This document shows positions 1 through 19,540 of a stretch of 36,619 nt of DNA, one piece after another. Position 1 is the first letter of the stretch. Each line of letters begins with the position of its first letter. A program made the translations under genes and the position numbers. The stretch spans positions 1 to 36,619 of the forward strand of contig JBHIFE010000001.1 of assembly GCA_046760985.1 (NCBI GenBank), written 5' to 3'. The notes beneath the pieces are model-generated. The model was not told the origin of the DNA. It worked only from the letters and a program-made list of their open reading frames with translations, and did no database searches. Origin of the DNA: Dehalococcoidales bacterium. GTDB lineage: Bacteria; Chloroflexota; Dehalococcoidia; Dehalococcoidales; RBG-16-60-22.

Positions 1-294
1 TTGGTGGATTGAGGAGTCATAAATAATTTCGAAGCCGTCGCCTTTTACCACAGTTGGTGGCGGTGGTGGCGGGCTTGGCGTGGGGACTGCAGGTGGAGTC
101 GGTGCTGGGCTAGGTGTTGGAGCAGGCGCTGGCACTGGGGGAGGTGGAGGAGACGGTCCTGGTACCGGAGCGGGAGACGGAACTGGCGTTGGAGGCGCTG
201 GGCTAGGTTCCGGGGCAGGTGGTGGCGGGGCGCAGCCAACCATAAACGCAAGTAATGCTAAAACAACAAGAATAGTGACCCCTTTCATTTTCAT
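1..294 (-). CDS. Lipoprotein with long proline-rich linker (N-terminal part only; gene runs off the window start)
   Basis: Absent from the ORF track because there is no stop in the window. The reverse strand from ATG at 294-292 reads MKMKGVTILVVLALLAFMVGCAPPPPAPEPSPAPPTPVPSPAPVPGPSPPPPPVPAPAPTPSPAPTPPAVPTPSPPPPPPTVVKGDGFEIIYDSSIHQ and stays open to base 1. It has a signal peptide with a lipobox (MVGC) followed by a Pro/Ser/Ala/Thr linker. Confidence 0.6.
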   Translation of the reverse strand, partial: MKMKGVTILVVLALLAFMVGCAPPPPAPEPSPAPPTPVPSPAPVPGPSPPPPPVPAPAPTPSPAPTPPAVPTPSPPPPPPTVVKGDGFEIIYDSSIHQ

Positions 295-401
295 CTCATC
301 CTAACGCCTAATATTATGCTTTCTTTACATTCTTATGATAATGCAAATCACCGACGGTAGCGGGCAGGCATCTCCCCGGCAACGGAGAGTGGACTGCACC
401 C

Positions 402-809
402 CTATGATTGGACAGGTAAGGTTAGGAGAGTCTGGGTGACACGGCTACGATTCCGTTTTCCCCATTGGAAATAGCGGTCACCACGAAGAGGCGCAAAGAA
501 GGACTCCGCTCGTTCAGCATTCGCTTGTGATATCTCCAAGTTAACCTCGGCATGTATCTTTTGCTCACCTTCAATTGAGACCAAGTCTAGACGATCCCAT
601 TCAGGACCATTAGTAAAAAATGCTGTTCGCAGAGTAGGATAAAAAGGCAGTCGTTTCCGGAACGCTTCTTGCTCTTCTTTCGTGGAACGATGGTAAGGGG
701 CTTTCGTTTCTACTGTGACGGCAGGATGGTCAAACTCATCAAGAAGCAGAATATCAAATCTCTCCCCAGTTTTGATACTCTCATCGGGCCATCCAAGTAC
801 CTCAACCAA
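402..809 (-). CDS. HsdR_N-like / PD-(D/E)xK restriction-endonuclease-fold domain protein, possibly disrupted
   Basis: LVEVLGWPDE...GERFDILLLDE...PAVTVETKAP matches the LGW...D...ExK layout of the N-terminal nuclease-fold domain of type I restriction R subunits. The track ORF starts at a TTG. The same frame continues upstream through an in-frame TAG (837-839) to an ATG at 875-873. Confidence 0.4.
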   Translation of the reverse strand: MVEVLGWPDESIKTGERFDILLLDEFDHPAVTVETKAPYHRSTKEEQEAFRKRLPFYPTLRTAFFTNGPEWDRLDLVSIEGEQKIHAEVNLEISQANAERAESFFAPLRGDRYFQWGKRNRSRVTQTLLTLPVQS

Positions 810-1134
810 TAGTCGCCCCGAGACCTCGGCAATGTTCTACTCCCTTTTATCACGAAGGATTCCAGCCTCGTTCATCGTCCCTTCAAGGCAATGGTAGCAC
901 GTGTATTGGGAGCAATCAACAAAACATCGAAAGGTTACCCGATGGGATGCACGATACGGTGACATTACTAGTTCCCCTTGCACCCTATGCACTTTATTGC
1001 TACAATTATCTTCGATGAGAGCTAGGGATCTAGACGGTCAGATTAAAAGCCAGCTCAAAAGTTCTGCCTATTGTCACCCCAGCTCCACCAAGTTTAGCTA
1101 TATTGCTACTTAAGAGCATCCCCGGTCAGCTTCT

Positions 1135-1353
1135 CTACCTTCTCCTTCTCCGCGCCAGGCCTTGTCCCACAAAGAAAGAGAGCACCCCGCCAACGAAGAG
1201 GAAGCCCAGCACAACTAGTTGGAGGTTGCCAACGAAGCTGCAGGCAATGGGTATAACATATAGAATGAGCGCAGCCACAACCACGCTGAAAACTGCCAAG
1301 AAGGCTCCCCCGATGCGCAGTATACTGATATACGAAGGTCTCTGCGTAACCAT
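1135..1353 (-). CDS. Small two-helix membrane protein, last gene of the respiratory operon
   Basis: 72 aa with two hydrophobic stretches and a C-terminal RRRRR tail. AAGGAGGA lies 7 nt upstream of the ATG, which is 43 nt downstream of the NrfD-like gene. Confidence 0.5.
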   Translation of the reverse strand: MVTQRPSYISILRIGGAFLAVFSVVVAALILYVIPIACSFVGNLQLVVLGFLFVGGVLSFFVGQGLARRRRR

Positions 1354-1396
1354 TGCTCAATCCTCCTTTGCGCTTTTCTTTACTTAAGGTTTCCCT

Positions 1397-2569
1397 TTAA
1401 AAGCCTAACCTTTTCCGCTCCGTTAGCTTAACCTCCTCCTGCCAGGGAGGAATTAAATAGACCAGCACGGCAAAAATCACCAGCGGCATTAGCAGTAACA
1501 CTATGACTACAATTATGCCGTTTAGCCCCAGCAGGGGTGGCGTATAACTAGTGAACCCCCTGAGACTTTTGGAAATTAACTGCCCCCCGATGACCACGTT
1601 CCAGCGCATGGCCAAGACTCCAATGAGAGCAAAACTGGCCGTTAGCGCTCTTATCGGCATCTTGATGTCTTCGCCGAGTCTGCTTAATTCAACGAACCCC
1701 AAAACGAATAACGGCAACACCGAGCCCAGGATAAACTGGACGCCAAAATAGCTGAAGGCAATCTTTTCGGTGATCAGCCGGGAGATGATTCCCCAGCTCT
1801 CTTCGGCCTCATAGAACATGGAGAAGACTTCCAGACCTTCCAAAACTACATTCACGCTTAAGAACCCCCCTAACCACAGAGCCAAGGAATGTAAGCAGGC
1901 GTGGTCCAGGGGTGCTCGTCTGATTTTGGCCACGGCGATGTACATCACAATCAGCAGGGCTATGCCCGAAACTATGGCTGACGTCAGGAAGATGATGGGC
2001 ATAAGTGGTGTTGACCACCAGGGATTAGCCTTAACCGCCCCGAAGATAAAGCCAACATAACCGTGAAGGAGAAAGGCAGCCGGGATGCCAATAAAGGCCA
2101 GTACTTTAATTAGCTTCTTATCAATGGCCACGGATTCTTCTGAAGTATCATAGACGCCCAAGGCTAACACGGAGTAAATGGTTTTCTTGGTGCCTTCGCT
2201 CGATTTGGCGTATCTCACGATGTTTGGCCTAAAAATGAGCCAGACTTCTAGAAGTACCAGCAGCAGGTAGAAAAACCATATGTAGCCAAAAGCCGCCATG
2301 GCCGAGGTAAGATTCGGCGTCAGGAACATTTCCAGTGCTCTTTCGGGTCGTCCCAGATGGATAATTAACGGTAGGGGTGTAATCACCAGAAAAGCCAACG
2401 CCACAACCAGGGAAAAGCGGGCCACCGGCTTAAGTACCTTTAGCCCGAACACGTGGTGAAGTGATGAGACAACAAAGGCACCAGCCACCAGTCCGGTGAT
2501 AAAGGGGTAAATAAAAATGAGCAAATCCCACTGTATCACGGTTTCGTTAGGAAAGACGAATCCAGACAC
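1397..2569 (-). CDS. NrfD/PsrC/ActC/DsrP-family polytopic membrane subunit (quinone-interacting)
   Basis: 390 aa, about 8-10 predicted TM helices and no heme motifs. GTG start lies 3 nt after the stop of the NrfC-like gene. Size and position directly after a TAT 4-cluster ferredoxin are typical of NrfD-family partners. Confidence 0.8.
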   Translation of the reverse strand: MSGFVFPNETVIQWDLLIFIYPFITGLVAGAFVVSSLHHVFGLKVLKPVARFSLVVALAFLVITPLPLIIHLGRPERALEMFLTPNLTSAMAAFGYIWFFYLLLVLLEVWLIFRPNIVRYAKSSEGTKKTIYSVLALGVYDTSEESVAIDKKLIKVLAFIGIPAAFLLHGYVGFIFGAVKANPWWSTPLMPIIFLTSAIVSGIALLIVMYIAVAKIRRAPLDHACLHSLALWLGGFLSVNVVLEGLEVFSMFYEAEESWGIISRLITEKIAFSYFGVQFILGSVLPLFVLGFVELSRLGEDIKMPIRALTASFALIGVLAMRWNVVIGGQLISKSLRGFTSYTPPLLGLNGIIVVIVLLLMPLVIFAVLVYLIPPWQEEVKLTERKRLGF

Positions 2570-2572
2570 GGT

Positions 2573-3358
2573 TTAATGCACCCCCTTTTCGAAGCCAATG
2601 TAATAGACCTTCGGCTCGGTTCCCAAGTCCGGTTTCAAAACGTAGACGTGCCTCTCTCTAAGTATTTTGGTCACCTGCCCCTCAGGGTCATGCAGATCAC
2701 CAAAAACTCTTGCCCCTACCGGACACACTTCCATGCAGGCAGGGACCAGTCCATGGGTAATTCGGTGGTAACACCAGGTGCATTTATCGACCACCCCTTT
2801 CTCGGGGAGGAAAAATCTAGCCCCATAGGGGCATGCCTGAATGCAGTACCGGCAGCCAATGCAGCGGTCCTGGTCAATTAGGATAACACCGTCATCCGTC
2901 TGATAGGTGGCGCCAACCGGACAAACCGTGACGCACGGGGGATTATCGCACTGGTTGCATAGTTTGGGCACAAAAAAGCTTTTCCAGACCTCGAGACCCT
3001 GGTACTTAGCGGTGAATCCGTCTCGGCCGGCATTTGGAGAGTCCACGAAGATTTCCCCATCGGCAGTGATGACGTATCTCTCTACCCAGGTTCGGTTGTA
3101 TTCAGGCTTCCAGGGCACCTTGTTTTCTAACTTACAGGCGACGACGCACCTACCACAGCCGATGCATTTCTCGTTATCACAGACAAATCCCCAGTAATGT
3201 TTCTCCAAATCGTATTGGCTATAGTTCGCTGCTGCCGCCGGCTGGCTAAATTCGCCCTGCATAAACTGGCGCAGCAGAGGCGGCATGTTGTAAACAAGCA
3301 TCCCCCCCAGCAAACCCTTGGCCCCCATTTTGATAAAATCCCGTCGGGAAATCTTCAT
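2573..3358 (-). CDS. TAT-exported NrfC/PsrB/DsrO-like ferredoxin with four [4Fe-4S] motifs
   Basis: Start moved to MKISRRDFIKMGAKG (twin-arginine signal), with AAGGAGAG SD, 2 nt after the decaheme stop. Cluster motifs: CIGCGRCVVAC, CNQCDNPPCVTVCP, CIGCRYCIQACP, CTWC...CMEVCP. Confidence 0.85.
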   Translation of the reverse strand: MKISRRDFIKMGAKGLLGGMLVYNMPPLLRQFMQGEFSQPAAAANYSQYDLEKHYWGFVCDNEKCIGCGRCVVACKLENKVPWKPEYNRTWVERYVITADGEIFVDSPNAGRDGFTAKYQGLEVWKSFFVPKLCNQCDNPPCVTVCPVGATYQTDDGVILIDQDRCIGCRYCIQACPYGARFFLPEKGVVDKCTWCYHRITHGLVPACMEVCPVGARVFGDLHDPEGQVTKILRERHVYVLKPDLGTEPKVYYIGFEKGVH

Positions 3359-3360
3359 TT

Positions 3361-4305
3361 CTAACGCTCTCCTTGCCCAGTCCGATGACAATTCAAGCAG
3401 ACGTCGCTAGTGAGCCCAGCATGCTCGACAGAAACGGCAATGGCGCCACTGGCATGGCACATCAGGCAGTCATCGTGTCCTTCCAGGGCGTGTGGTATTA
3501 TGGGCGGTGCACTGACGGGCGCGGGAGTTGGTAGTAGTGCCGATGCCGAGGTTGATGCTTCGGCTAGCTGATGGCAGGTGGTGCAAGTAATGCTGGTGCG
3601 CCCGACGTGGTCTTCCGGGACAGGCTTGATGGCACCGGTATTATGGCACGTCAGGCAATCGGTGCGCCCCTCTAAGGTATGTGGAATTCGAGGTAGTGTT
3701 GCTCCTCTGAATTCCTTGGGACCGTGGCACGACAGACACTTAGTGCGTCCCTCTAGGGTATGGGGAATCTCAGGGGGCGGTTCAGTCCAAGGCTCATGAG
3801 GCCCATGGCACAACTGGCATTCAGTGCGTCCCTCTAATGTATGTGGCACCTGGGGTGGCATCCCGGCTCTGGGTTCATGCGGGTCATGGCAGGTAACACA
3901 CTCGGCATTTCCCCCCATCTCTTCTATATCCACCTGGGGGAAGTTGCTAGGCCGGGAAACAAGCTTGGCATGGCATAATCCGCAGAGCTCTCTCGAGGTA
4001 TTCAGGGCAAGAGGTGCTCCAGTTTTGGCATGGGTCATTGCTGGGCCATGGCAATTCTCGCAGCTAATTGTCCGATGGTTGCCCTTCTCCCACATATCAT
4101 GTTTGTCTGGGTGGCAATCAACGCATACCGAGGAGCTGATATATTGGACGGGCAGGCTTGCCCACTGCTCCCGGTTCCCCTCGTTATCCCTGGGGCGAAA
4201 GCCGTATTCAGTAAGGAACTCGGGAGCCGGTATCACTCTCAGCCCAATGAAAATAAATATGAGTACCACTGATAATAATGCTCCGGCCCTTTTCAAATGG
4301 ATCAT
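3361..4305 (-). CDS. Membrane-anchored decaheme c-type cytochrome
   Basis: N-terminal hydrophobic anchor (ALLSVVLIFIFIGL) and ten CxxCH motifs: CVDCH, CENCH, CGLCH, CVTCH, CQLCH, CLSCH, CLTCH, CTTCH, CLMCH, CLNCH. The motif PH(T/A)LEG(R/H)xxCxxCH occurs four times. Confidence 0.85.
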   Translation of the reverse strand: MIHLKRAGALLSVVLIFIFIGLRVIPAPEFLTEYGFRPRDNEGNREQWASLPVQYISSSVCVDCHPDKHDMWEKGNHRTISCENCHGPAMTHAKTGAPLALNTSRELCGLCHAKLVSRPSNFPQVDIEEMGGNAECVTCHDPHEPRAGMPPQVPHTLEGRTECQLCHGPHEPWTEPPPEIPHTLEGRTKCLSCHGPKEFRGATLPRIPHTLEGRTDCLTCHNTGAIKPVPEDHVGRTSITCTTCHQLAEASTSASALLPTPAPVSAPPIIPHALEGHDDCLMCHASGAIAVSVEHAGLTSDVCLNCHRTGQGER

Positions 4306-4370
4306 TTTTGGTCTTTCCCCACCACTGCTTTGTAGTTAAAACTTACCCTGTTCATATCCTTTTACTCAGT

Positions 4371-5249
4371 TTAGTGGCAGTTCAGGCACAAATCGTTACC
4401 GCGGCCACTGTGATCAGAAGGAACCTTGGGCACGCCCCCGATGCCAGTTTCATGACAAAGCAAACAGGAGAGGCGTCCCTCTAGGGAATGCGGCACCTGA
4501 GGAGGGGTGGTTGGCGCCGGTGGCGCTGGTGCTGCTTCCTCGGGGGTCTGGGGTACCTCGGCTGAGGTTTTCTTCAGAGTTGTGAGATACAGCGAGATGC
4601 TCTCTATTTCCTCGTGAGTCAATGCCCCTAGGTAACCGGGCATGGCTGAGTTTGGATTAATCACCAGAGGGTCTTCCAAGTATTTGTGAATCCAGCTCAG
4701 GGTTCGCCGCTCCGTCAGCCCGGCAAGGTCAGGACCAATGGTTCCGCCTACTCCATTTATGGCATGGCAACTGGCGCAATCCTGCTCATGATATAATTTG
4801 TCCCCTAATTCAATATAGGCGGAGCGGGAAGACATTGAGGGTGGTGCTGCAGCTATCCCCTGAACGGTCAAAAAAATGATGGTCGCGATGACAAAAAGAC
4901 CAATCCCGGAGGCTAACGGTCGCCGGAAGGGTCTCATTATCGGACTTCGGTCAAAAAAGGGTAATAAAAGTAAGGCTAGGATGGCTAATGCCGGCACAAT
5001 AACGGCACCAACAAACTCCAGTTCGCCGGGGAAGAATTCGAGTAGTTTGAAGAGGAACAGAAAGTACCATTCCGGTCGGGGGATGTAGCTTGTGTCCATT
5101 GGTCGGGCTACGCTTTCATGTGCTGGCGGGAAAAACACAACTATTAGCACCAGCACCAGGAAAACTACAAGCATCACTATTGCCCCCATAAAGGCATGGT
5201 CGGGCCAGAATGTCTCACGCTTCTCTTGGGGTTTACGTCTTTCTAGCAC
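4371..5249 (-). CDS. qcrC: Cytochrome b subunit IV fused to c-type cytochrome domain (QcrC-like), with an extra C-terminal diheme module (3 CxxCH in total)
   Basis: Start moved to GTG at 5249 (AAGGGAGGGG SD, 25 nt after the cytochrome b stop). The track's longer ORF overlaps cytochrome b by 98 nt. PEWYFLFLF is the Qo-site motif and three TM helices are present. A monoheme domain follows (CASCH...NSAMPGY), then VPHSLEGRLSCLLCH...SDHSGRGNDLCLNCH. Confidence 0.8.
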   Translation of the reverse strand: MLERRKPQEKRETFWPDHAFMGAIVMLVVFLVLVLIVVFFPPAHESVARPMDTSYIPRPEWYFLFLFKLLEFFPGELEFVGAVIVPALAILALLLLPFFDRSPIMRPFRRPLASGIGLFVIATIIFLTVQGIAAAPPSMSSRSAYIELGDKLYHEQDCASCHAINGVGGTIGPDLAGLTERRTLSWIHKYLEDPLVINPNSAMPGYLGALTHEEIESISLYLTTLKKTSAEVPQTPEEAAPAPPAPTTPPQVPHSLEGRLSCLLCHETGIGGVPKVPSDHSGRGNDLCLNCH

Positions 5250-5274
5250 CTTTTCCCCTCCCTTTGGCTTATCT

Positions 5275-5946
5275 TCACAAGGGACGAGAGATTCCTTGCC
5301 TTCGCACCATAAAGAAGTGCAAACCAAGTAAGAACAGGAGTATCGCCGGCAAAAACCCGATATGGATGGCATAGAAGCGAACTAAAGTCACAGCACCAAC
5401 CTCAGCTCCTCCCCTCACCAGCTTAAGGAGATAGTCGCCAATGAAAGGCACCAAGCTAATCATGCTGGTACCTACCGAGGTTGCCCAGTAGGACCTTTGA
5501 TTCCACGGGAGAAGGTAACCGGTGAAACTGAAACCCAGGACGATTAAAAGAAGCAGCACGCCAACCACCCAGTTCAACTCTCTTGGATTCTTGTATGCTC
5601 CGTGAAAGTAGACACGCAGTGTGTGGAGCACCACCATGACTATTATGGCACTGGCACCCCAGTAGTGAATGCCACGGACCAACCAACCCAAAGTAACATT
5701 ATTCATTATGTATTGTACCGAGTCATAGGCATGGTCGGGGGAGGGGACATAATAGATAATCAGAAAAAGTCCGGTCAGGAACATCAGCAGGATGATGAAA
5801 GCAGCGATGCCGCCAAAGCAATAAACGAAGGCACTAGGGTGCTTGAGGGGATTCGCATGCTCCGGTACCGGATGGTCTAACTGGTTATCAATCGCCTTCT
5901 TGATATTGAGGCGTTTATCTATTACATCGTAGATTCGTCCTAGCAC
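5275..5946 (-). CDS. qcrB: Cytochrome b6-type subunit (N-terminal four-helix half of cytochrome b)
   Basis: 223 aa. Helix B has H-x13-H (HYWGASAIIVMVVLH) and helix D has H-x14-H (HIGFLPAILLFLLGLH), the b6/Firmicutes-type spacing. VYCFGG carries the conserved Cys (codon 5818-5820) that binds heme ci in b6f and Bacillus-type complexes. Confidence 0.9.
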   Translation of the reverse strand: MLGRIYDVIDKRLNIKKAIDNQLDHPVPEHANPLKHPSAFVYCFGGIAAFIILLMFLTGLFLIIYYVPSPDHAYDSVQYIMNNVTLGWLVRGIHYWGASAIIVMVVLHTLRVYFHGAYKNPRELNWVVGVLLLLIVLGFSFTGYLLPWNQRSYWATSVGTSMISLVPFIGDYLLKLVRGGAEVGAVTLVRFYAIHIGFLPAILLFLLGLHFFMVRRQGISRPL

Positions 5947-5966
5947 TTGCCCTCTTTCCCATAAAC

Positions 5967-6587
5967 TTAGAGTTCAATCTTCTCGGCGATACCGGCTCGG
6001 AAATCCTTATAGATGGTGAAAAGTTTGCCATCTTCTACTTTCACAGAAAGGGTATCCAGGGGGCGGGGTGGCGGACCACCCAGCACCGTGCCATCAATGT
6101 CAAATATGCCATCATGGCACGGGCAAAAGAAGTGGTCTTTATCAGGCATGGCTGAGCCATAGGCGGTTTGATGTGGTTCTCCTTTCAGTTTCCAGCTGTA
6201 AGCGCAACTCAGATGAGTGCACCTTGGGTTAAACACGGTGAAGTTCTCCTCATCTTGCTTTACCACCCAAACTGCTCTGGGCGCTGTTTCCATAACCCAG
6301 CCATCTATTTTGGCGGTGGTCCACTGCACCATGGTTGGTCGCCCCACCTCAAAATCCTCTATCTTGCCCAACTCTACCCACCCCGACCATCCCCTTTTTT
6401 TGTGTAAGACTGGTGAAATTAGGCTCCCGATAAGGGGAATCCCCATCAAAGCGGTAATCACCGCTCCTATCCCAATAGTTGCATAGCCCAAGAATCTTCT
6501 TCTGGATATAGGTTCACCTTCAAATTTGGATTTAGGTTTAGCTTCCCCCCTTGATAAAGATTTATCTTTCCAATCAAAGCTCACCAC
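5967..6587 (-). CDS. qcrA: Rieske [2Fe-2S] subunit with TAT signal
   Basis: SRRRFLGYATIG twin-arginine/anchor segment. Cluster boxes are CTHLSC and CPCHDG. GTG start with GAGG SD. Confidence 0.9.
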   Translation of the reverse strand: MVSFDWKDKSLSRGEAKPKSKFEGEPISRRRFLGYATIGIGAVITALMGIPLIGSLISPVLHKKRGWSGWVELGKIEDFEVGRPTMVQWTTAKIDGWVMETAPRAVWVVKQDEENFTVFNPRCTHLSCAYSWKLKGEPHQTAYGSAMPDKDHFFCPCHDGIFDIDGTVLGGPPPRPLDTLSVKVEDGKLFTIYKDFRAGIAEKIEL

Positions 6588-6640: not shown

Positions 6641-7402
6641 CTACTCTTTGGACGGGGTTGCCCTGTTGGACAAGGCGCCAAGGATATCCACTGTCAGCGG
6701 AATGACGGTGCTATTTCTCTCGCCGGCCATCTCGACCAAGGTTTGGAGGTAGCGTAGCTGCAATGCTATCGGCTGCGTTTGGATAATCTTAGCCGCTTCC
6801 GCTAAGGTTTCCGCAGCTAGCCGTTCACCTTGGGCATGGATAACTTTGCCTCGCTTTTCCCGCTCTGCCTCAGCCTGCCGGGCCATCGCCCGCTGCATCG
6901 CCTCGGGAAGGAGAACATCCTTAACCTCCACCAGCGTGGCACTGACCCCCCATGGCTCCTCACTTTCTTTGTCAATAATCTGCCGCAGTCTCAAGTTTAT
7001 CTGGTCACGGTGGGCAAGCAGTTCGTCCAGCTCTGACTGTCCCAGAACGCTCCTGAGGGTGGTTAGGGCGAGCTGAATGATAGCTTCTCGGTAGTTCTCA
7101 ACATTAATCGCCGCTTTCACTGGGTCAACCACCATAAAGTAGACCACGGCATCGACCTTGACGGTTACATTGTCCCTGGTTATCACCTCTTGCGGTTCCA
7201 GGACATAGGGGACAATACGGAGGCTAATCTTGGTCATGCGGTCAACAAAGGGGATAATCACGTTGAAGCCGGGGTTCCTGACTCCGACCAGTCGCCCGAA
7301 GCGAAGCACCACCCCGCGCTCATACTGTTTCACAATCTTGATAGCCGCCGCCAGTATCACCAATGCAGCTACAATGATAAGAAAGATAATCCACGCATTC
7401 AT
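6641..7402 (-). CDS. SPFH/band-7 (stomatin/slipin-like) membrane scaffold protein
   Basis: N-terminal TM (AWIIFLIIVAALVILAAAI), then IVKQYERGVVLRFGR...VITRDNVTVKVDAVVYF and a coiled-coil ARQAEAEREKR, all typical of SPFH proteins. Start set to ATG 7402 (GGAGGA 7 nt upstream). Confidence 0.9.
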   Translation of the reverse strand: MNAWIIFLIIVAALVILAAAIKIVKQYERGVVLRFGRLVGVRNPGFNVIIPFVDRMTKISLRIVPYVLEPQEVITRDNVTVKVDAVVYFMVVDPVKAAINVENYREAIIQLALTTLRSVLGQSELDELLAHRDQINLRLRQIIDKESEEPWGVSATLVEVKDVLLPEAMQRAMARQAEAEREKRGKVIHAQGERLAAETLAEAAKIIQTQPIALQLRYLQTLVEMAGERNSTVIPLTVDILGALSNRATPSKE

Positions 7403-7514
7403 ACTCAATTCCTCCTTTTTGTTTTTAACCTGATGTTTCTCTATTTATCACTTGGTGTCTCTCATGGGCACCTCCATCACGTAACTTGGCCAACCACGCC
7501 TTAATTGGCGCTCT

Positions 7515-7898
7515 TCAGCGGATAACCTTTCGCACCCGCATCAGTAGGTCACGCATATCAAAGGGTTTTTGAATATAGTCATCAGGCTTGAGCTTCTCTA
7601 TCAAAGCTACGTCCGGCGGTTCCACCGTGACCACAATTACCGGTATGTGACGCAGCGGTTCGGTCAGTCTGAGGAGGCTCAGGATACCCCAGCCGTTGAA
7701 GTCGGGCAAGGTGAGGTCTAAAAGAATAAGGTCGACCTGCGTATCATGAATTATTCTGATGCAGTCAAAGCCACTGGCTGCTTCCACAACCCGAATGTCT
7801 CCGCCTTCCAGATTGCGCCTGATCAGTTTGCTTATCTTCTGGTCGTCATCAACGACCAGAACTGAGAGACGCTTTACACCTTGAAACTTGGCTGGCAT
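7515..7898 (-). CDS. Stand-alone CheY-like receiver domain protein
   Basis: 127 aa with VLVVDDD...LILLDLTLPDFNG...KPF receiver signature and no output domain. AAGGTGAG SD. Confidence 0.85.
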   Translation of the reverse strand: MPAKFQGVKRLSVLVVDDDQKISKLIRRNLEGGDIRVVEAASGFDCIRIIHDTQVDLILLDLTLPDFNGWGILSLLRLTEPLRHIPVIVVTVEPPDVALIEKLKPDDYIQKPFDMRDLLMRVRKVIR

Positions 7899-8063: not shown

Positions 8064-8762
8064 CTACGCTGGGGAGACAAACATGTAGCCAATGCCGGGT
8101 TTGGAAAGGATATATTTGGGCTGGTGTGGATTTTCCTCTATCTTTTGTCGCAGATGGCGAATATAAGCTCTGAGGTACTCCAGCTCATCCTGATATTCGG
8201 CTCCCCACACTCTGGTCAGCAGCTCATGATGCAGCATCACCCGCCCGGCATTGCTCACCAGCTGGCACAAGAGCTTATACTCGGTGAGCGTCAATGCTAC
8301 CTCCTGCCCCTGCACCGTCACTCTACGTTGTGCGAAATCAACGCAAACATCGCCACAGGTGAAGGTAGGAGGCACTTTGGCTTCTTCCGAGGACCCGGTG
8401 CGCCGTAGCACTGCTTCTATCCTGGCGAGCAGCTCCTGAACGCTAAACGGCTTGGTCAGGTAGTCGTCAGCGCCTAATTTCAGCCCCCTCACCTTGTCAG
8501 TATCTTCTACTTTGGCGGTGAGCATGATGATTGGTGTAGCTGAGAACTCTCTGATTCGCTGACAGAGCTCATATCCGTCTATCTCCGGCAACATGATATC
8601 CAAGATAATCATGTCCGGCATCTCTATTTCGGCAAGCTTAAGGGCGGAACAAGCGTCCATGGCTATCAAAACCCGGTAGCCCACCGATTCCAGGTTGGCG
8701 CGCACCAACCTGATTAGCTGAGGGTCATCATCAACCAATAGAACCGAGGTTTTTTCCCCCAT
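8064..8762 (-). CDS. OmpR/PhoB-family response regulator (receiver + winged-helix DNA-binding domain)
   Basis: VLLVDDD...MIILDIMLPEIDG...KPF receiver plus LTLTEYKLLCQL...YLRAYIRHLRQKIE...GIGYMF winged-helix output. It lies 22 nt downstream of the kinase gene. Confidence 0.9.
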   Translation of the reverse strand: MGEKTSVLLVDDDPQLIRLVRANLESVGYRVLIAMDACSALKLAEIEMPDMIILDIMLPEIDGYELCQRIREFSATPIIMLTAKVEDTDKVRGLKLGADDYLTKPFSVQELLARIEAVLRRTGSSEEAKVPPTFTCGDVCVDFAQRRVTVQGQEVALTLTEYKLLCQLVSNAGRVMLHHELLTRVWGAEYQDELEYLRAYIRHLRQKIEENPHQPKYILSKPGIGYMFVSPA

Positions 8763-8784: not shown

Positions 8785-11133
8785 TTATTCGCTGTCTTCG
8801 ACTTTGTCCAAGGGCAAGCTAAAACAAAATTTGCTTCCCTTACCGACGGTACTTTCCAGCCAGACTTCGCCACCATGAGCCTCAACGTGACCTTTGGCAA
8901 TGGAGAGTCCGAGTCCGCTACCGGGGGTGCTATGGGTTACCCAGCTATCGACCCGGTAGAATCGCTCGAAAACCTTATCTTGGTGTTCTGGGGGGATGCC
9001 TATCCCCTGATCACTGACACTGACCACGACTTTACCATCTCTGGTCTCACCAGCTATGGTAACCTCACCACCCTCTGGCGAGTATTTTACCGCGTTTTCT
9101 GTCAGGTTGCGCAATACCTGTTCCATACACCGAACATCAGCCTCAATCACAGGGAAAGAAGGCGAAAATTGCAGGGTGAACTTATGATTCTTGGCTCGTG
9201 GGGCAATCTCATCCACAACCTTCTGGGCAAGTCGGGGGATCAGTACCGGCTCCTTTTCCAGTTTGAGGGCTCCGGCTTCTAGTTTGGCTGATTGCAGGAG
9301 CTTGTCAATCAGGTCGCGCAGTTCATCAGTCTTCTCATTGATAATCTGGAGGAACTCTCGCTGGGTTTCCTCTTCCCAAGAGGCATCTTGACGAAGCAAT
9401 GAGGTGGAATAGCCCTTGATGAGAGTAAGCGGGGTCCGTAGCTCATGGGAGACTGAGGAAATAATCTGAGACCTTAATCGGTCCGCCTCATGCAGAGCTC
9501 TTGCCTCCTCCGCCTCATTGGTCAGCTGGTCCCTTTCAATGGCTATGGCGATATAATCGGCTATAGCCTGGACAAGACGACGATCCGACTCAGAGAAGGC
9601 TTGAGTATCCCGAAAGCTTATCATAACAAGGCTTCCAATATGCCGGCCCTGATGGCATACCTGACCACAAATATGGCTCTGCGCTTTCGGGCGTAAAGCA
9701 TCAGACTGAAGAAACGCAGTAACTGCCGCTTTGACCCTATCTTGGCTATCATCATCTGTCGGCTCCGAAATCGAGCCTGATGAAAGCTCATTACCGCTAA
9801 ATATAAACTGAGAATGAGTTCCTTTGTCCAGCCCAACCGCAGACTGCACCACTAGACCACTTTGGTCGGCACCTTGGAGAAGCAACGCTCCACCATCTGC
9901 CCCAGAGATAATCTCCACCGCTTTAACCACCACCGCATCTAGAAGACGGGATAAATCAAGAGTGGAGGTTAGAATCTCCGACACCGAGAGTAGCGAAGAG
10001 AGCTCTTTCGTCCTTTGCTCTAGCTCACCATAAGAGGTCTTCAGTTTGGTCCGCATGTCGTCAAAAGTCTGGGCTAGTATGCCGACTTCGTCTTTACCTA
10101 AGGTGGTAACCGGGCTGCTTAAGTCCCCTTCGGCTATCCTTTGGGAAGCGGTGGTAAGCATCCTAATACGGCTGCCGATATCTCGTGTGGTTACTGCCAC
10201 AAACAGGAGACTAACAACGACCAATCCTACTCCGAAGAGAAGCAGATTTTGATACAATTCACGAGTGGGGGCGAGTGCTTCTTCCTCTGACTGCCGGATG
10301 ACAACACCCCAGTTGGCCTTGGAGAGGGGAACGAAGGCCAGCACATCCTTCCTGTCCACCTTTTGCCCTGGTTCATGACAGGTATGACACACCCCGCGGG
10401 TCGGCTCTCCAGCACTAATCAGCCTGGCAAAGCGACCACTATGGTCGCTTTTCTCAAAAGGAGCCAGCTTAGGCCCAGGCTCAGTTCTGGCGACGACAAT
10501 CCCGTTCTGGTCTACAATCTCGACATAGCCTGTCTCTCCCAGTCTTATGGGGCGGACGAAGCCGCCGATACTCGATTGAGCTAGGTCAATAGCCACCACG
10601 AGCACACTTTTGCTCCCTTGTTGTCCCTGTTTAGTGAGACTAGTAAGAAAAACCACCGGGGTATCAGTCACCGGCAATGAAGTAAGCCCAGAGATACTGG
10701 GCTCACCACTACTTATAGCTTGGCTGATGCTAGGATAGGAGGAAATATCAATATCTGCTATCCCCAAATCCTCTGGCTCACTCCATATAACCTGCCCTCT
10801 TTCATTGAGGAGATAGATGCTATGAGTATAAATGGACAACCGGGAATAGGTGTCCTCAAGTTCTTCTATCTGTGGTTCAAAGTTATCCTTTGCCCCGTCA
10901 CTTTCTATCATCTGGGCAGTGTTTTTCAGCTCAACGAGAGCACGCCCCAGCGCTTCGTCCAGGTAGTCGGCTACCAGGCGGGCAGTAGTCAGCCGGTCTT
11001 GAAGCATGGTTTCGGTAGCCTTGTTCACCGCTCCCATGCCCAAAGAGCTAAATACTCCAATGCCCAGTAGCAGCCCTAGCGTAGTCAGGAGAGTAATCTT
11101 TTTCCCCAGAGTTAGGTTTGTCAGTAATTTCAC
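8785..11133 (-). CDS. Sensor histidine kinase: TM, Cache-like extracytoplasmic domain with CxxCH, TM, HAMP, GAF, HisKA, HATPase
   Basis: TM helices at about aa 14-35 and 297-314. The intervening region has Cache-like YLLNERGQVIW and GYVEIVDQNGIVV strands and CHTCH at aa 249-253. H-box SHELRTPL, N-box NLTENAVKYS, G-boxes DQGIGI and GSGLGLSI. GTG start. Confidence 0.9.
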   Translation of the reverse strand: MKLLTNLTLGKKITLLTTLGLLLGIGVFSSLGMGAVNKATETMLQDRLTTARLVADYLDEALGRALVELKNTAQMIESDGAKDNFEPQIEELEDTYSRLSIYTHSIYLLNERGQVIWSEPEDLGIADIDISSYPSISQAISSGEPSISGLTSLPVTDTPVVFLTSLTKQGQQGSKSVLVVAIDLAQSSIGGFVRPIRLGETGYVEIVDQNGIVVARTEPGPKLAPFEKSDHSGRFARLISAGEPTRGVCHTCHEPGQKVDRKDVLAFVPLSKANWGVVIRQSEEEALAPTRELYQNLLLFGVGLVVVSLLFVAVTTRDIGSRIRMLTTASQRIAEGDLSSPVTTLGKDEVGILAQTFDDMRTKLKTSYGELEQRTKELSSLLSVSEILTSTLDLSRLLDAVVVKAVEIISGADGGALLLQGADQSGLVVQSAVGLDKGTHSQFIFSGNELSSGSISEPTDDDSQDRVKAAVTAFLQSDALRPKAQSHICGQVCHQGRHIGSLVMISFRDTQAFSESDRRLVQAIADYIAIAIERDQLTNEAEEARALHEADRLRSQIISSVSHELRTPLTLIKGYSTSLLRQDASWEEETQREFLQIINEKTDELRDLIDKLLQSAKLEAGALKLEKEPVLIPRLAQKVVDEIAPRAKNHKFTLQFSPSFPVIEADVRCMEQVLRNLTENAVKYSPEGGEVTIAGETRDGKVVVSVSDQGIGIPPEHQDKVFERFYRVDSWVTHSTPGSGLGLSIAKGHVEAHGGEVWLESTVGKGSKFCFSLPLDKVEDSE

Positions 11134-11858: not shown

Positions 11859-13859
11859 TCACTCACTTTGAAGGTCAGGAACAATGCTTTCGTAATAATC
11901 CAATGACTTCGGATTAACTAGAGCATCCCTATTTACGACTACCCTACCATGTATTATGTTCGTGACCGCGATTTCCACTTTCTTCATGTTGAGCGTATAA
12001 GGGATGTCCGACACTTCAATAATTCTAGCCGGAACATGCCGCGGAGAGGCATTTTCACGAAGGGTTTTTCTAATTTTATTCTGCAAATCGTCTGTTAAGT
12101 TGTATCCCGTAGCGAGTTTAACAAAGAGGATAATACGCTGGTCGCCTTTCCACTCCTGTCCAATAGCCAGGCTATCGGCAACCTCCTCTAGCTTCTCTAC
12201 TTGGTTATATATTTCAGCGGTGCCAATGCGAACTCCTGAGGGTTTTAAGACAGCGTCAGAGCGACCAAAAAAGGTTATTCCCCTAGTATCACTATGAATC
12301 ATGATGTAATCTCCGTGACGCCATACCCTCGGGTAAATACTAAAGTAAGCCTCTTTATATCTCTCGCCATTCGGATCATTCCAGAAATAAAGTGGCATGG
12401 AGGGGGCAGGAGCTTCACAGACAAGCTCTCCCATTTGGTCAAGTACTGGGCTACCTTTTTCATCATAACAATTCACCTTCATTCCCAAAGCTGCCCTCTG
12501 TAATTCACCAGCATACACAGCGAGAGTAGGACTCCCGATAGCAAAACAGCCATTGATATCTGTGCCGCCAGAAATAGAATTAAAGTGTAGGTCTGCTTTA
12601 ATGGCTTTATATATGTATTCAAAACCCTCAGCCGAAAGAACTGAACCGGTTTGGGATATTTCCCGCAGTGATGACAAATCATAATCCTTTCCAGGCTCAA
12701 GCCCCTCAGTTCTAAGATAGTTGATGTAACTGGCACTGGTACCGAAAATTGTTATCTTCTCATCCTGTATCAGTTTCCACATGGCACCCGGATCAGGATA
12801 ATTGGGGTTACCATCATATAATACTATGGTAGCTCCTATGGCTAAGGAACTAAGCAGCCAGTTCCACATCATCCAACTGCAAGTGGTTATGTAGAAGATT
12901 GTATCCTCTCGCTTTAAGTCGGTATGAAGTATCAACTCCTTTAAATGATTGATGAGGACTCCGCCAGCTCCCTGAACCATGCACTTTGGCTTACCAGTTG
13001 TTCCTGAGGAAAACATGATAAATAGAGGGTGATCAGAAGGTAACTGCTCAAATTGAATTTCAGGTTGCTCTTCCCCAGCTATGAATTGATCATAATACAC
13101 AGAGTTAGGAATATGACTGATATCAGTTTTTTCTCCCGTATAACGAACCACGATAACTTTTTCCAAAGAGGGTATTCCCCTGACAATCTCGCCAGCGTTA
13201 GCTAAGGAATTAAAGGTCTTCCCCTTATAAAAATAGCCATCGGCCGTGAATAGAACCTTTGGTTTAATTTGACCAAGACGCTCCAGAGTTGCCTGCGCAC
13301 CGAGATCAGTAGCACAAGAAGACCATACCGCGCCAATACTGGTAGTAGCCAGCATAGCAGTAGCGGTCTCTATTAAATTAGGCATATAAGCCACTACCCT
13401 GTCTCCAGGCTTAACCCCTACATTGCGCAGAGATTTGGCAAGACGAGCCACGGAATCATAAAGTTCGGCATAGCTCATCCTGGCAGATTTCTGAGTTTCT
13501 CCTTTGAATATGAAAGCGAGATGGTCGTCTCTGTATCTCAACAGGTTCTCAGCAAAATTCAATCTGGCACCACCAAACCACTTAGCACCGGGAAACTTAC
13601 TTAAGTCGTCAACCACCTCGTCATACTGGCGAGAGGCTTTGATTGGGGCAAATTCCCACATAGCCGCCCAAAAGTCAGGTATCTTCTCAACTGACCAGTC
13701 ATATAGCTCATCATACGAGTCAATCGTAAGACCATATTTTTCATTGACAAAGCTAGTGAACCAGGTCAGGTTAGCTTGTTTCTTAATTTCCTCGGAGGGC
13801 TCCCAAATGGGCACCTTCACAGCACTCACTCCTTTAGCGTTTGGCTTTAACTCACTCAA
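11859..13859 (-). CDS. aacS: Acetoacetate-CoA ligase (acetoacetyl-CoA synthetase)
   Basis: 666 aa. The N-terminus IWEPSEE...YDELYDWSVEKIPDFWAAMWEF is characteristic of AacS. The AMP-binding motif is MFSSGTTGKPK. It lies 8 nt downstream of the BKACE gene. Confidence 0.85.
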   Translation of the reverse strand: MSELKPNAKGVSAVKVPIWEPSEEIKKQANLTWFTSFVNEKYGLTIDSYDELYDWSVEKIPDFWAAMWEFAPIKASRQYDEVVDDLSKFPGAKWFGGARLNFAENLLRYRDDHLAFIFKGETQKSARMSYAELYDSVARLAKSLRNVGVKPGDRVVAYMPNLIETATAMLATTSIGAVWSSCATDLGAQATLERLGQIKPKVLFTADGYFYKGKTFNSLANAGEIVRGIPSLEKVIVVRYTGEKTDISHIPNSVYYDQFIAGEEQPEIQFEQLPSDHPLFIMFSSGTTGKPKCMVQGAGGVLINHLKELILHTDLKREDTIFYITTCSWMMWNWLLSSLAIGATIVLYDGNPNYPDPGAMWKLIQDEKITIFGTSASYINYLRTEGLEPGKDYDLSSLREISQTGSVLSAEGFEYIYKAIKADLHFNSISGGTDINGCFAIGSPTLAVYAGELQRAALGMKVNCYDEKGSPVLDQMGELVCEAPAPSMPLYFWNDPNGERYKEAYFSIYPRVWRHGDYIMIHSDTRGITFFGRSDAVLKPSGVRIGTAEIYNQVEKLEEVADSLAIGQEWKGDQRIILFVKLATGYNLTDDLQNKIRKTLRENASPRHVPARIIEVSDIPYTLNMKKVEIAVTNIIHGRVVVNRDALVNPKSLDYYESIVPDLQSE

Positions 13860-13867
13860 GCCTACCT

Positions 13868-14791: not shown

Positions 14792-14830
14792 TTCTATTCC
14801 ACCTCCTTTCTATTCTGGGGGGCAGCATGA

Positions 14831-15445
14831 TTATCCCTTTTTCCTTTCCTTGGGAGCCCCGCGGTCATCCGGAACCTCGGATACCATATATGGAGTCCCA
14901 CCCTGACAGGCACGGCAGACTTCCCCATCATCAACCGGATAGGCTTCTCTACACAGGGGACAAATGGTTAATCCACCCCGGCGCTGTTTTTTCCTGAAAG
15001 GGGGGTTAACCTTAACCCGTTGGATGCCGCAGATATTTGATCCAGCTTCTCTGATCTGTTCTATAAGGAGCTTTGAGTCCTGTTCTTTTTTAGACTTTAG
15101 CTTGAAAAACCAGCTTTTGATCTCGGACCATACTTCTACCTTGGTCGGATCCAGAAAAACCCGTATCCCTTCACCCTGGTATTTCTCATAAATGGTTAAG
15201 GCAAAACGACCCATATTGATGACTTTGAGCCATCCGTTCCCTATGGTGCACGGGGTGAGAAGCTGTATTGCGTCAGGGAGACAGACGGGGGTTTCGCATA
15301 TGGCATCAAACAGTCCGTCTTTAGGAAGGTGCTTGAACGCCAGATCTACCATAAACCCCCCTATGACCACGCCCGGGGCAGCGTATCCGTGAAAGGATTT
15401 AACCAGATTTACATATTCTTCAAACGTATAGGAACAAATATTCAT
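14831..15445 (-). CDS. FmdE-family protein with C-terminal zinc ribbon
   Basis: HGYAAPGVVIGGFMVD...LPDAIQLLTPCTIGNGWLKV resembles the FmdE domain. The C-terminal CPLCREAYPV...CRACQ is a zinc ribbon. Confidence 0.7.
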   Translation of the reverse strand: MNICSYTFEEYVNLVKSFHGYAAPGVVIGGFMVDLAFKHLPKDGLFDAICETPVCLPDAIQLLTPCTIGNGWLKVINMGRFALTIYEKYQGEGIRVFLDPTKVEVWSEIKSWFFKLKSKKEQDSKLLIEQIREAGSNICGIQRVKVNPPFRKKQRRGGLTICPLCREAYPVDDGEVCRACQGGTPYMVSEVPDDRGAPKERKKG

Positions 15446-15611
15446 AAGTCACACAGTCAAATTTTCTGATTAAGAATTAAATAAAAGCCTTAAATCAGAC
15501 CTCGTTAATTTATTATAAAATTTCCAAAATGCGAGGTTTACAAATAACCTGAAGATACCAACAGTGCCCTTTCGCTTCATCGCAAAAGGCGCGCAACACT
15601 TTTACCTAAAA

Positions 15612-19468: not shown

Positions 19469-19540
19469 TCACTGGTTGTCTTGAGGCTACCTCGTTTCAG
19501 TCCCATTGGCAGCAGAACCGCTCAGACTGAGAAGACCAAT

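Follow-up and report, generated by a model that had tools for sequence, protein, structure and literature searches.

The locus described here encodes, in the reading that we favour with somewhat better than even confidence, two separable menaquinol-oxidising complexes of one respiratory pathway, both feeding multihaem cytochromes on the membrane's outer face. It lies in the window, i.e., the 36,619-nt stretch of a sediment Dehalococcoidales genome that was analysed, where the genes of a Rieske/cytochrome b complex are followed by those of a decahaem cytochrome and an NrfCD module. This pairing is real and recurrent in other bacteria, and the two modules appear separable, without an obligate hybrid.

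Gene content of the locus

Seven tightly packed open reading frames, all verified on the minus strand, encode in this order a Rieske protein (6587-5967), a cytochrome b6 (5946-5275), a subunit IV fused to a c-type cytochrome (5249-4371; GTG start within a longer ORF), a decahaem cytochrome (4305-3361), an NrfC-like protein (3358-2573; ATG within a longer ORF), an NrfD protein (2569-1397), and a small protein (1353-1135). The gaps between them are 20, 25, 65, 2, 3, and 43 nt; an earlier note on this DNA had the frames and their order right, with 19 nt for the first gap. A motif scan returned 13 CXXCH motifs, three in the subunit IV fusion and 10 in the decahaem, and four Cys-cluster motifs, i.e., 4x[4Fe-4S], are present in the NrfC-like protein, in agreement with the thirteen c-type haems and four Fe-S clusters counted in that note. 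The co-linearity of a bc-type Qo/Qi machinery with a haem-less NrfD-family subunit in one gene run was likewise verified. Because the identical seven-gene order recurs on five other contigs (49-87% amino-acid identity) and pN/pS is 0.21-0.31 across all genes of the set, the arrangement is more than chance.

The first three genes form the Rieske/cytochrome b cassette. The Rieske protein (Pfam Rieske and UCR_Fe-S_N) has the cluster motifs CTHLSC and CPCH, and the TAT motif of its signal/anchor reads ISRRRFLGY. Its box II (CPCHDGIF) lacks the Ser and Tyr of high-potential Rieske proteins, and from the established knowledge of Rieske hydrogen-bonding residues we take it to be of the low-potential, menaquinol type. 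The cytochrome b6 is of the split type (Pfam Cytochrome_B, 3.6e-53); it scores 304.6 bits on the NCBIfam b6 model and 275.3 bits on the ExtP model, each slightly below the model's own cut-off, and alignment to the b6 proteins of 7r0w and 1vf5 shows that it keeps the four haem His and the haem-ci Cys in YC(F/L)GG. The subunit IV fusion (Pfam Cytochrom_B_C and Cytochrom_C) has three transmembrane helices and PEWY at residue 59, and its C-terminal part consists of a class-I cytochrome c domain and then a dihaem module (PHSLEGR..CLLCH..CLNCH), making it a trihaem c overall; homologues of this dihaem module form the C-terminal modules of the decahaem. About 25 homologues of the fusion were found at 60% identity or more. 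Intact cassettes have pN/pS values of 0.22-0.31, equal to those of NrfC and NrfD, and by this measure the intact cassette is functional and under the same purifying selection as NrfCD. It has diverged in step with the genes that flank it, which points to an old co-residence.

The remaining four genes form the core. Its first gene, the decahaem, has orthologues in nearly all related loci; the protein has a single N-terminal transmembrane anchor helix, matches multihaem families in Pfam and NCBIfam, and contains four PH(T/A)LEG(R/H) repeat units, while most of its relatives have eight haems. The NrfC-like protein (261 aa; Pfam Fer4_11, 5.8e-27) carries the TAT motif SRRDFIK, read from the sequence; its best solved relative is PsrB (2vpw_B, 7.6e-48), it also matches ActB (1e-24 to 2e-25), and its NCBIfam scores lie near DsrO and TtrB. 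NrfD (Pfam NrfD, 4.6e-39) is an integral membrane quinone-site subunit of about 10 helices with more than 120 homologues at 69% identity or more. Its AF2 model (pLDDT 77.8, pTM 0.80) resembles ActC in Foldseek (TMq 0.76-0.80, against 0.43 for PsrC), so that an ActC-like fold is predicted; identity to ActC is 16-17%, with no match found at the HMM level. The small protein (72 aa) is hydrophobic, with one clear helix and a second, Gly-rich one; it matched no Pfam family, and it lies directly 3' of NrfD in most sufficiently long loci, with E values down to 1e-24.

A consensus scan found neither a promoter nor a terminator-like site in the 65-nt gap between cassette and core (4306-4370, minus strand), where the earlier note had suggested looking for them. 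The sequence of the gap (ATAT..GGTAAGTTTTA..) is related, as alignment shows, to the sequence preceding the multihaem gene in loci with the cassette, with an alternative module, or with a deletion scar; no conserved RNA structure was found there. Since this conserved element could be an internal promoter, we only infer the co-transcription of cassette and core. The same type of scan places a terminator-like hairpin with a T-rich tail at 925-944 (minus strand), about 190 nt 3' of the last gene.

An SPFH/Band 7 membrane protein (6641-7408; Pfam Band_7, 2.6e-36), a stand-alone receiver-domain response regulator (7515-7898), an OmpR-type response regulator (8064-8762; Pfam Response_reg and Trans_reg_C), and a sensor histidine kinase (8785-11133; Pfam dCache, HAMP, GAF, HisKA, and HATPase) are encoded upstream, also on the minus strand, and both regulators are syntenic in relatives. 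Between the end of the Band 7 gene and the Rieske start lie 53 nt, and the consensus scan found no terminator-like site on the minus strand of this gap; the gene may share a transcript with the seven genes. The extracytoplasmic domain of the kinase bears a CHTCH haem-c motif (about nt 10375-10389), and this CXXCH is kept in all orthologues; the kinase is syntenic in six related loci (L091, L096, L099, L105, L109, and L112).

A variable slot in related loci

The locus was compared with about 23 related Dehalococcoidales contigs, which are metagenomic and of which several come from four sister assemblies. They share a common frame of sensor kinase, two response regulators, Band 7 gene (always directly upstream of the slot), slot, and then the multihaem, NrfC, NrfD, and small-protein genes. 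The slot holds the Rieske/cytochrome b/subunit IV cassette in seven loci, the window included, and a second, divergent multihaem–NrfCD module in nine, among them L164, whose slot contains a second multihaem–NrfC–NrfD–small set; in the other seven it is empty. Locus L162, for instance, has the same flanks and the complete frame, its core headed by a decahaem gene, without Rieske/cytochrome b genes. In L085 the "empty" slot is a deletion scar in which codons of the Rieske TAT signal run directly into the final ~35 of the subunit IV gene, and in L105 a decayed cassette has two internal deletions. The three states are interleaved in an NrfD neighbour-joining tree, which carries no support values. 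The core keeps its four genes and its haem counts, and the kinase keeps its CXXCH, whatever the slot contains. Judged from this comparison, the four-gene unit is a conserved, self-sufficient core, and the slot upstream of it is exchangeable, occupied here by a complete Rieske/cytochrome b6 complex. In L161 and several other loci, TatA-TatA-TatC genes lie 3' of the core.

Outside these close relatives, a distant tetrahaem–NrfCD clade (NrfD 49% identical), widespread in Deltaproteobacteria-type MAGs, lies near unrelated Rieske/cytochrome b genes in other phyla, i.e., in L067 (Gemmatimonadetes), L016 (FCPU426), L146/148, L149, and L158. The two modules are co-linear in the Gemmatimonadetes MAG and otherwise divergent, convergent, or kilobases apart, often inside islands that also encode CbcL-like proteins and cytochromes with 9 to 19 haems. 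Moreover, ACIII/Qrc-like clusters abut Rieske/cytochrome b operons in L041 and L007. Neighbourhood comparison, a check that the earlier note had proposed, thus found the adjacency repeatedly, across several lineages and several phyla.

Relation to described complexes

Our literature search found no published account of a Rieske/cytochrome b–NrfCD pairing, in line with the earlier observation that the gene order matches no described complex. Several known systems share parts of it. Alternative complex III (ActABCDEF; Rhodothermus, Flavobacterium, Chloroflexus, Roseiflexus) likewise has an anchored multihaem cytochrome, a TAT four-cluster Fe-S protein, a ~10-helix NrfD-type quinol subunit, and an extra small membrane protein; however, the core lacks the molybdopterin-like ActB1 domain, the second NrfD-like subunit ActF, and the monohaem ActE, has 8-10 haems instead of five, and adjoins a Rieske/cytochrome b complex, whereas ACIII replaces one. 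Cbc4 of Geobacter sulfurreducens (CbcSTU; GSU0068-0070), a proposed menaquinol:periplasmic cytochrome oxidoreductase (10.1101/2025.04.14.648717), has a similar set of subunits: a multihaem c with a membrane anchor, a protein with 4x[4Fe-4S], and one integral membrane subunit. It has four haems where the core has 10 (or 8), the core adds the conserved small subunit, and no Rieske/cytochrome b partner is described for Cbc4.

In the Geobacter Cbc6/extKLMNOPQS cluster, genes for Rieske, b6-type cytochrome b, and subunit IV-like membrane proteins share an operon with those of 10- and 12-haem cytochromes (PMC5877670). The cytochrome b of the window remains below the ExtP cut-off of 290 bits; its locus lacks the porin, rhodanese, and selenoprotein cytochrome and has subunit IV fused to c haems, and the Geobacter cluster, unlike the window locus, has neither NrfC nor NrfD. 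The cassette is similar to the Firmicute-type b6c complexes (Bacillus QcrABC, heliobacterial PetABCD), which share its split cytochrome b6/subunit IV, haem-ci Cys, and putative low-potential-type Rieske, and its fusion resembles Bacillus QcrC; the added C-terminal dihaem module and the NrfCD complex in the same locus set the window apart. Rieske/cytochrome b genes of anammox bacteria (Kuenenia) cluster with multihaem cytochromes, but the window and its relatives lack HAO-like octahaem and NAD(P)-oxidoreductase subunits, and the anammox-like multi-module complex put forward earlier therefore finds no counterpart here.

The cytochrome b of DsrMKJOP and Hmc is of the NarI type rather than the bc/b6 type, and neither a Rieske partner nor a Q-cycle goes with it. 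Both systems also have cytoplasmic catalytic subunits, which the window locus lacks. DsrMKJOP and HmcABCDEF are characterised complexes of sulfur-metabolising bacteria in which two subunits interact with quinone, one of the NrfD type and the other a dihaem cytochrome b; for Dsr, the two have been proposed to operate a quinone cycle (PMC8076601). Together with the two NrfD-like subunits of ACIII, this makes the view that such modules are always alternatives to each other too strong.

Electron routes and competing readings

The earlier note was correct in recognising two co-linear, recurrent quinone-reactive modules; the physical or functional hybrid that it raised is not supported as an obligate machine. 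In such a supercomplex, Rieske/cytochrome b, 13 c haems, and NrfCD would be one machine with two quinone sites. It could direct electrons either into the Q-cycle or to the NrfD site, divide them between these two routes, or operate as a quinone loop. The tight packing, the gap without consensus terminator, the order conserved on five contigs and co-linear in the Gemmatimonadetes MAG, and the homologous dihaem modules, compatible with direct docking, speak for it, and ACIII, DsrMKJOP, and Hmc offer a precedent, each having two quinone-interacting subunits (PMC8076601). We nonetheless consider it quite unlikely, as the core is constant over the three slot states, including those without the cassette or with a second NrfCD, it stays intact in L085 and L105, and the modules lie in varied arrangements in distant relatives. 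The closest outgroup Rieske/cytochrome b operons stand alone and already bear the same C-terminal dihaem extension, which is thus no adaptation to an NrfCD partnership, and a quinol-to-quinone loop within a single pool would yield no energy. At the other extreme, the cassette might be an ordinary complex III that is being lost from a variable region beside an unrelated NrfCD operon. About two thirds of the related loci lack it, decay is visible in two, the core may have its own promoter in the conserved upstream sequence, and orthologous NrfD genes lie near just 3 of 80 Rieske/cytochrome b loci sampled from species-representative genomes. This reading seems very improbable to us, given the independent co-localisation of this NrfD family with unrelated Rieske/cytochrome b genes in four or more further lineages and in five different arrangements, which would be far above the ~1% that a 20-kb neighbourhood should give by chance when the genome spans a few megabases, the selection on intact cassettes and their divergence in step with the flanks, and a position inside the frame between Band 7 gene and core rather than beside it.

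The direction of electrons through the NrfCD module cannot be read from the sequence, and Qrc, with its multihaem, four-cluster, and NrfD subunits, runs as an electrogenic quinone reductase (PMC13059093). In the same direction, the module here could pass electrons from an extracytoplasmic donor to menaquinone, with Rieske/cytochrome b re-oxidising the quinol; if so, the operon would encode both input and output of the quinone pool and deliver quinol electrons to a higher-potential acceptor. The scores of the NrfC-like protein close to DsrO and TtrB fit such a chain, as does the fact that two thirds of the slot-bearing loci combine two quinone modules of different kinds. We hold it to be unlikely: neither the locus nor its relatives encode a donor enzyme such as a periplasmic hydrogenase or formate dehydrogenase, the top structural match of NrfD is ActC, the quinol-oxidising subunit of ACIII, haem chains for input and for output would be prone to short-circuit when they lie on one face, and the core frequently occurs without any second module.

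According to our preferred reading of two separable complexes, the core would be a minimal ACIII/Cbc4-like quinol:multihaem-cytochrome oxidoreductase, in which quinol is oxidised at the ActC-like NrfD subunit and the four [4Fe-4S] clusters of the NrfC-like protein relay electrons to the 10-haem wire anchored in the membrane. Modules made of multihaem, FeS, and NrfD subunits have been interpreted as quinol:periplasmic-cytochrome reductases in Geobacter Cbc4 (10.1101/2025.04.14.648717) and read in the same way in Melioribacter and MBNT15 (PMC3534657, PMC9386147). No gene near the locus encodes a terminal acceptor or reductase, and the wire would deliver to an extracytoplasmic acceptor encoded elsewhere, e.g., metal oxides, humic quinones, or a partner reductase. 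The cassette, as a complete b6c-type complex whose own three c haems would reach the common outer-face haem pool, would open a second route for quinol oxidation, one whose H+/e- yield is higher owing to the Q-cycle and which is usable if the acceptor potential is high enough. The two complexes would be co-regulated and probably co-transcribed in this monoderm Dehalococcoidales bacterium, with the haem-c-motif sensor kinase probably tuning their expression to the redox conditions outside.

Gene content of the operon and predicted function of its modules

ORF calling recovered the seven minus-strand ORFs at the positions claimed in the earlier note, with intergenic gaps of 20, 25, 65, 2, 3, and 43 nt; the last five are as previously given, and the first had been counted as 19 nt. 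The gene identities proposed there were upheld, every assignment being backed by Pfam and NCBIfam: a Rieske protein with a TAT-signal domain, a split cytochrome b6, and a subunit IV fused to a class-I cytochrome c (together, the cassette), followed downstream by a multihaem cytochrome, a Fer4_11 four-cluster (NrfC-like) protein, an NrfD-family membrane protein, and a 72-aa hydrophobic protein without family (together, the core). Motif counts also agree with the 13 c haems (3 + 10 CXXCH motifs) and the four Fe-S clusters (four Cys-cluster motifs in the Fe-S protein) that had been claimed. A consensus scan located a hairpin with a T-tail about 190 nt past the last operon gene. A 135-aa ORF without Pfam family (402-809, minus strand) lies between the operon and a lipoprotein-like ORF (1-296, minus strand; MKGVTILVVLALLAFMVGC...), which continues into a long Pro-rich linker and runs off the contig end.

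The Rieske protein scores above the Pfam cut-offs for Rieske and UCR_Fe-S_N and carries a TAT signal (TIGR01409, 19.5 bits vs. a cut-off of 16.7), and a motif search located its ligands in CTHLSC (residue 123) and CPCH (residue 155). The Ser and Tyr of box II raise the Rieske potential in ubiquinol and plastoquinol enzymes. Box II of the window protein (CPCHDGIF) is devoid of both residues, which suggests a low-potential, menaquinol-type centre. Cytochrome b6 keeps the four haem His and the haem-ci Cys (YC(F/L)GG) when aligned to b6 of 7r0w and 1vf5; as in the b6 type, b6 and subunit IV are encoded by separate genes. The Qo-site PEWY motif is found in subunit IV (PRPEWYF, residues 57-63) and is invariant across alignment A1. 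From these motifs, the cassette is predicted to encode a complete b6c-type Rieske/cytochrome b complex, i.e., a quinol:cytochrome c oxidoreductase with a Q-cycle. A dihaem unit, PHxLEG(R/H)..CxxCH..CxxCH, is common to subunit IV and the decahaem cytochrome of the core (46% identity over 41 residues).

The NrfC-like protein of the core contains four Cys motifs and a SRRDFIK TAT signal, and its gene ends 3 nt upstream of the NrfD gene. Among solved structures, PsrB from Thermus is the nearest to it (7.6e-48), and it also matches ActB of alternative complex III (ACIII). The NrfD protein matches Pfam PF03916 (135.3 bits vs. a cut-off of 25.8) and has no CXXCH motif. At the sequence level, it did not match any solved structure in the PDB, either with the single sequence or with a profile, and thus a fold comparison was required. 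Subunits of the NrfD/PsrC family are made of two four-helix bundles free of redox cofactor motifs, and the AlphaFold2 model of the window protein (pLDDT 77.8, pTM 0.80) matches ActC, ActF, and PsrC. In Foldseek, the best superposition was on ActC (TMq 0.76-0.80, rmsd 3.1-3.4 Å; 8k9e_C, 6lod_C, 6f0k_C, 6btm_C), ActF came second, and PsrC reached a TMq of only 0.43. ActC is the quinol-oxidising subunit of ACIII. NrfCD, the N-terminally anchored multihaem cytochrome, and the small membrane protein would together make the core a minimal unit that resembles ACIII or Geobacter Cbc4. A sulfite reductase of the SirACD/MccACD type was discarded, since the multihaem protein, a haem wire of 314 aa, does not match any catalytic octahaem family.

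A conserved frame around an exchangeable slot

At ≥69% identity, over 120 homologues of the NrfD protein were counted, against only about 25 at ≥60% for the subunit IV fusion. We compared 80 metagenome loci around NrfD relatives, whose ORFs were scored with the window proteins, their flanking genes, and the second module of locus L164. Close relatives share a frame that consists of a sensor kinase, an OmpR-type regulator, a receiver-only regulator, a Band7 protein, a slot, a multihaem cytochrome (8-10 haems), NrfC, NrfD, and the small protein. A TatA-TatA-TatC group is located 3' of the core in several loci and is absent from the window.

The slot was found in three states. It holds the Rieske/cytochrome b6/subunit IV cassette in seven loci (the window, L081, L087, L109, L124 (=L161), the partial L144, and the decayed L105); a second, divergent 9-haem-NrfC-NrfD-small protein module in nine (L082, L086, L091, L099, L103, L107, L115, L116, and L164); and nothing in another seven (L085, L096 (=L162), L101, L112, L113, L114, and L131). 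L162 has the same flanks and decahaem gene as the window and lacks the cassette. In the second module of L164 (4762-8373), the 9-haem cytochrome is 416 aa long and has both a class-I c domain and a TM helix at its C terminus; its companions are an NrfC-like protein, an NrfD of 440 aa, and a protein of 67 aa. In L113 and L126, the second module is placed downstream of the core and not in the slot. The three states are interleaved on a neighbour-joining NrfD tree without support values. Also 3' of the core, L162 (11935-17780) carries genes for a MerR-type regulator, two radical-SAM proteins, a NirD/L-like protein, sirohaem-synthase domains, and a glutamyl-tRNA reductase, a set that resembles the alternative haem biosynthesis pathway.

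The sensor kinase of the frame (8785-11133, minus strand) contains a CHTCH haem-c motif (CXXCH; about nt 10375-10389) inside its extracytoplasmic dCache domain. This motif is strictly kept in nine orthologous kinases, whatever the slot content, which suggests redox sensing by a putative haem-based sensor. Beyond the frame, the window contains two regions (11859-23187 and 28925-35426) that encode pyrogallol-transhydroxylase-like molybdoenzymes, with AhtL-like large subunits (16451-19468 and 31114-33732) and beta subunits that combine Fer4_11 and CarboxypepD_reg domains. Beside them are genes for a BKACE protein, an SDR, a cyclase, a 3-hydroxyacyl-CoA dehydrogenase, an acetoacetate-CoA-ligase-like enzyme, a thiolase-like protein, a ChsH2-like OB protein, and a branched-chain-type ABC transporter, so that these regions look like a polyphenol/phloroglucinol degradation cluster.

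The cassette is an old resident of the slot and, where intact, appears functional. Its proteins share 70-76% (Rieske), 81-87% (cytochrome b6), and 64-73% (subunit IV) amino acid identity with those of the window, the values for the flanks being 75-79% (NrfC), 69-79% (NrfD), and 82-86% (Band7). Uncorrected pN/pS is 0.21-0.31 across all genes. This divergence and these ratios are those of a long-standing resident kept under purifying selection. A recent horizontal insertion was rejected because the divergence of the cassette follows that of the flanks, and its base composition is unremarkable. Locus L085, scored as empty, bears a deletion scar (400-760), immediately 5' of the core, in which the first ~55 Rieske codons (TAT signal ISRKRFLGY...) run straight into the final ~35 of subunit IV (...DHGGRSNDVCLSCHKSRQ*). 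In the decayed cassette of L105 (7138-8411), Rieske residues 20-136 are joined to cytochrome b residues 179-223, a junction that might be a misassembly, and subunit IV has no dihaem end. The core genes are intact in both loci. The nearest outgroup cassettes, P0034 and P0035 (~40% identity), are stand-alone three-gene operons that already have the C-terminal dihaem extension, which therefore did not evolve in adaptation to the adjacent NrfCD.

The seven genes had been taken as a single transcription unit. No terminator-like or promoter-like site was found on the minus strand in the 65-nt gap between cassette and core (4306-4370), in agreement with that proposal, nor in the 53-nt gap after the Band7 gene, by a consensus scan whose hit counts do not exceed those of shuffled sequence and which is uninformative for Chloroflexota promoters. 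The ~65 nt upstream of the multihaem gene are moderately conserved (ATAT..GGTAAAnTTTA..), whatever gene precedes, in cassette, second-module, and scar loci (window 4306-4370, L087, L109, L124, L085, L164, and L107). An RNA element was discarded, since RNAalifold on nine related intergenic regions gave no conserved structure; Rfam did not match anywhere in the window. An element so conserved across slot states may act as an internal promoter or bind a regulator, and so we only infer the co-transcription of cassette and core.

Pairing in other lineages and comparison with known systems

A tetrahaem-NrfC-NrfD clade (49% NrfD identity) occurs widely, in MAGs labelled Deltaproteobacteria, Anaeromyxobacteraceae, Eisenbacteria, and others, and some of its members are found near unrelated Rieske/cytochrome b genes in varied arrangements. 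In the Gemmatimonadetes MAG of L067 the two modules are co-linear, with a DUF5676 2-TM protein next in line; L016, from an FCPU426 MAG, has them in divergent orientation; they are convergent in L149, 7 kb apart in L146/L148 within an island with NapC-like, CbcL-like, and MtrC-like cytochromes, and 1 kb apart in L158 amid 9-, 11-, and 19-haem proteins. The islands L146:8342-20586 and L158:4411-18783 bring together tetrahaem-NrfCD, Rieske/cytochrome b, NapC-like, CbcL-like (multihaem + cytochrome b561), and 9-19-haem cytochromes. No Rieske/cytochrome b genes were present nearby on three further long contigs of the clade. Conversely, 3 of 80 Rieske/cytochrome b loci from species-representative genomes have the orthologous NrfD within 10 kb, and in another four, NrfC- or NrfCD-type genes of other kinds are close by. 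Two of these four, L041 (1633-10792) and L007 (527-10993), from one Chloroflexota MAG and one deltaproteobacterial MAG, carry ACIII/Qrc-like clusters (pentahaem cytochrome, molybdopterin-like protein with an Fe4S4 domain, four-cluster protein, NrfD, and cytochrome c) directly upstream of, and co-directional with, Rieske-cytochrome b-subunit IV genes. The neighbourhood search proposed in the earlier note therefore yields a mixed answer: the pairing recurs in at least three phyla, but its order and presence vary, and it is facultative.

Each half of the locus is of a known kind, i.e., b6c-type Rieske/cytochrome b complexes and ACIII/Cbc4-like NrfCD modules. The window NrfD model shares the ActC-type fold of the ACIII quinol subunit. 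ActB, however, has a large molybdopterin-like B1 domain, whereas the 261-aa NrfC-like protein has only Fer4 domains and the operon contains no molybdopterin-family gene; ACIII also has two NrfD-like subunits (ActC and ActF) and the monohaem ActE, whereas NrfD is encoded only once in the operon and a separate monohaem gene is missing. Cbc4 (CbcSTU) combines an anchored tetrahaem cytochrome (NapC/NirT-like) with a 4x[4Fe-4S] protein and a membrane subunit; the core is similar in architecture but has 10 haems, and the N-terminal part of its decahaem protein gave only weak NrfH and DmsE-family matches. Units of multihaem, Fe-S, and NrfD proteins have been proposed as quinol:periplasmic-cytochrome reductases in Geobacter (10.1101/2025.04.14.648717), Melioribacter (PMC3534657), and an MBNT15 bacterium (PMC9386147). 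The Geobacter Cbc6/ExtMNOPQS system joins a b6c-type Rieske/cytochrome b complex to 10- and 12-haem cytochromes (PMC5877670); the window cytochrome b reaches 275.3 bits on NCBIfam ExtP, just below the equivalog cut-off of 290, and none of the ExtH-L partners (rhodanese, porin, selenoprotein cytochrome) is encoded in the window. The suggested likeness to the multi-module complexes of anammox bacteria was rejected on gene content, with no HAO-like octahaem or NAD(P)H-oxidoreductase subunits among the operon genes and flanks. Complexes with two quinone-interacting subunits are already known (ACIII, DsrMKJOP, and Hmc; PMC8076601). The gene order had not been recognised as a described complex, and a full-text literature search likewise found no description of a bc-type and NrfCD pairing, of the three-state slot, or of a widespread four-gene minimal ACIII-like core, although the pairing may have been mentioned in Duarte et al. 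2021 (NrfD redox loops).

Possible roles of the two modules

The most economical reading, which we moderately favour, is that cassette and core are two separable menaquinol-oxidising complexes in one regulated pathway. Quinol electrons would pass in the core from an ActC-like site through the four Fe-S clusters to the anchored 8-10-haem wire, on the outer face of a cell without outer membrane; the cassette would add a Q-cycle route, its three c haems reaching the same haem pool. By analogy with Geobacter, where several inner-membrane quinol oxidoreductases are tuned to acceptor potential (10.1101/2025.04.14.648717), the slot may determine the quinol-oxidation route, or routes, open to a lineage.

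A serial chain with NrfCD as the quinone reductase appears improbable; the NrfD model best matches ActC. The quinol-to-quinone loop suggested earlier is ruled out on energetic grounds for a single pool. The obligate hybrid, also suggested earlier, is slightly more doubtful still: the core occurs without the cassette in L162, and the pairing is facultative. An equally doubtful proposal is that cassette and core are joined, through the homologous dihaem modules, in a single supercomplex whose two distinct quinol sites lie on a common haem wire. If such a supercomplex existed, the cell could switch by acceptor potential between the Q-cycle, with its high yield, and the low-yield NrfD route within one assembly, and evolution could use the slot to plug in alternative quinone modules. 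That the adjacency is fortuitous seems the least probable of all. We infer that the pairing is far commoner than random placement would give, since in a genome of a few megabases a 20-kb neighbourhood takes up about 1%.

Complex III and ACIII-type modules are usually regarded as substitutes, but here both types are repeatedly side by side, in at least three phyla, and one Dehalococcoidales lineage has a defined exchangeable slot for them, under a single putative haem-based sensor kinase. A minimal complex of ACIII type (multihaem, NrfC, NrfD, and small subunit), which has neither a solved structure nor an assay, is also suggested to be widespread. The loci offer a natural genotype series (core only, core plus Rieske/cytochrome b, and core plus second NrfCD module) that could show the share of each quinol-oxidising module in the anaerobic or extracellular respiration of an abundant uncultured sediment group, whose cultured members are better known as devoid of cytochromes and quinones.
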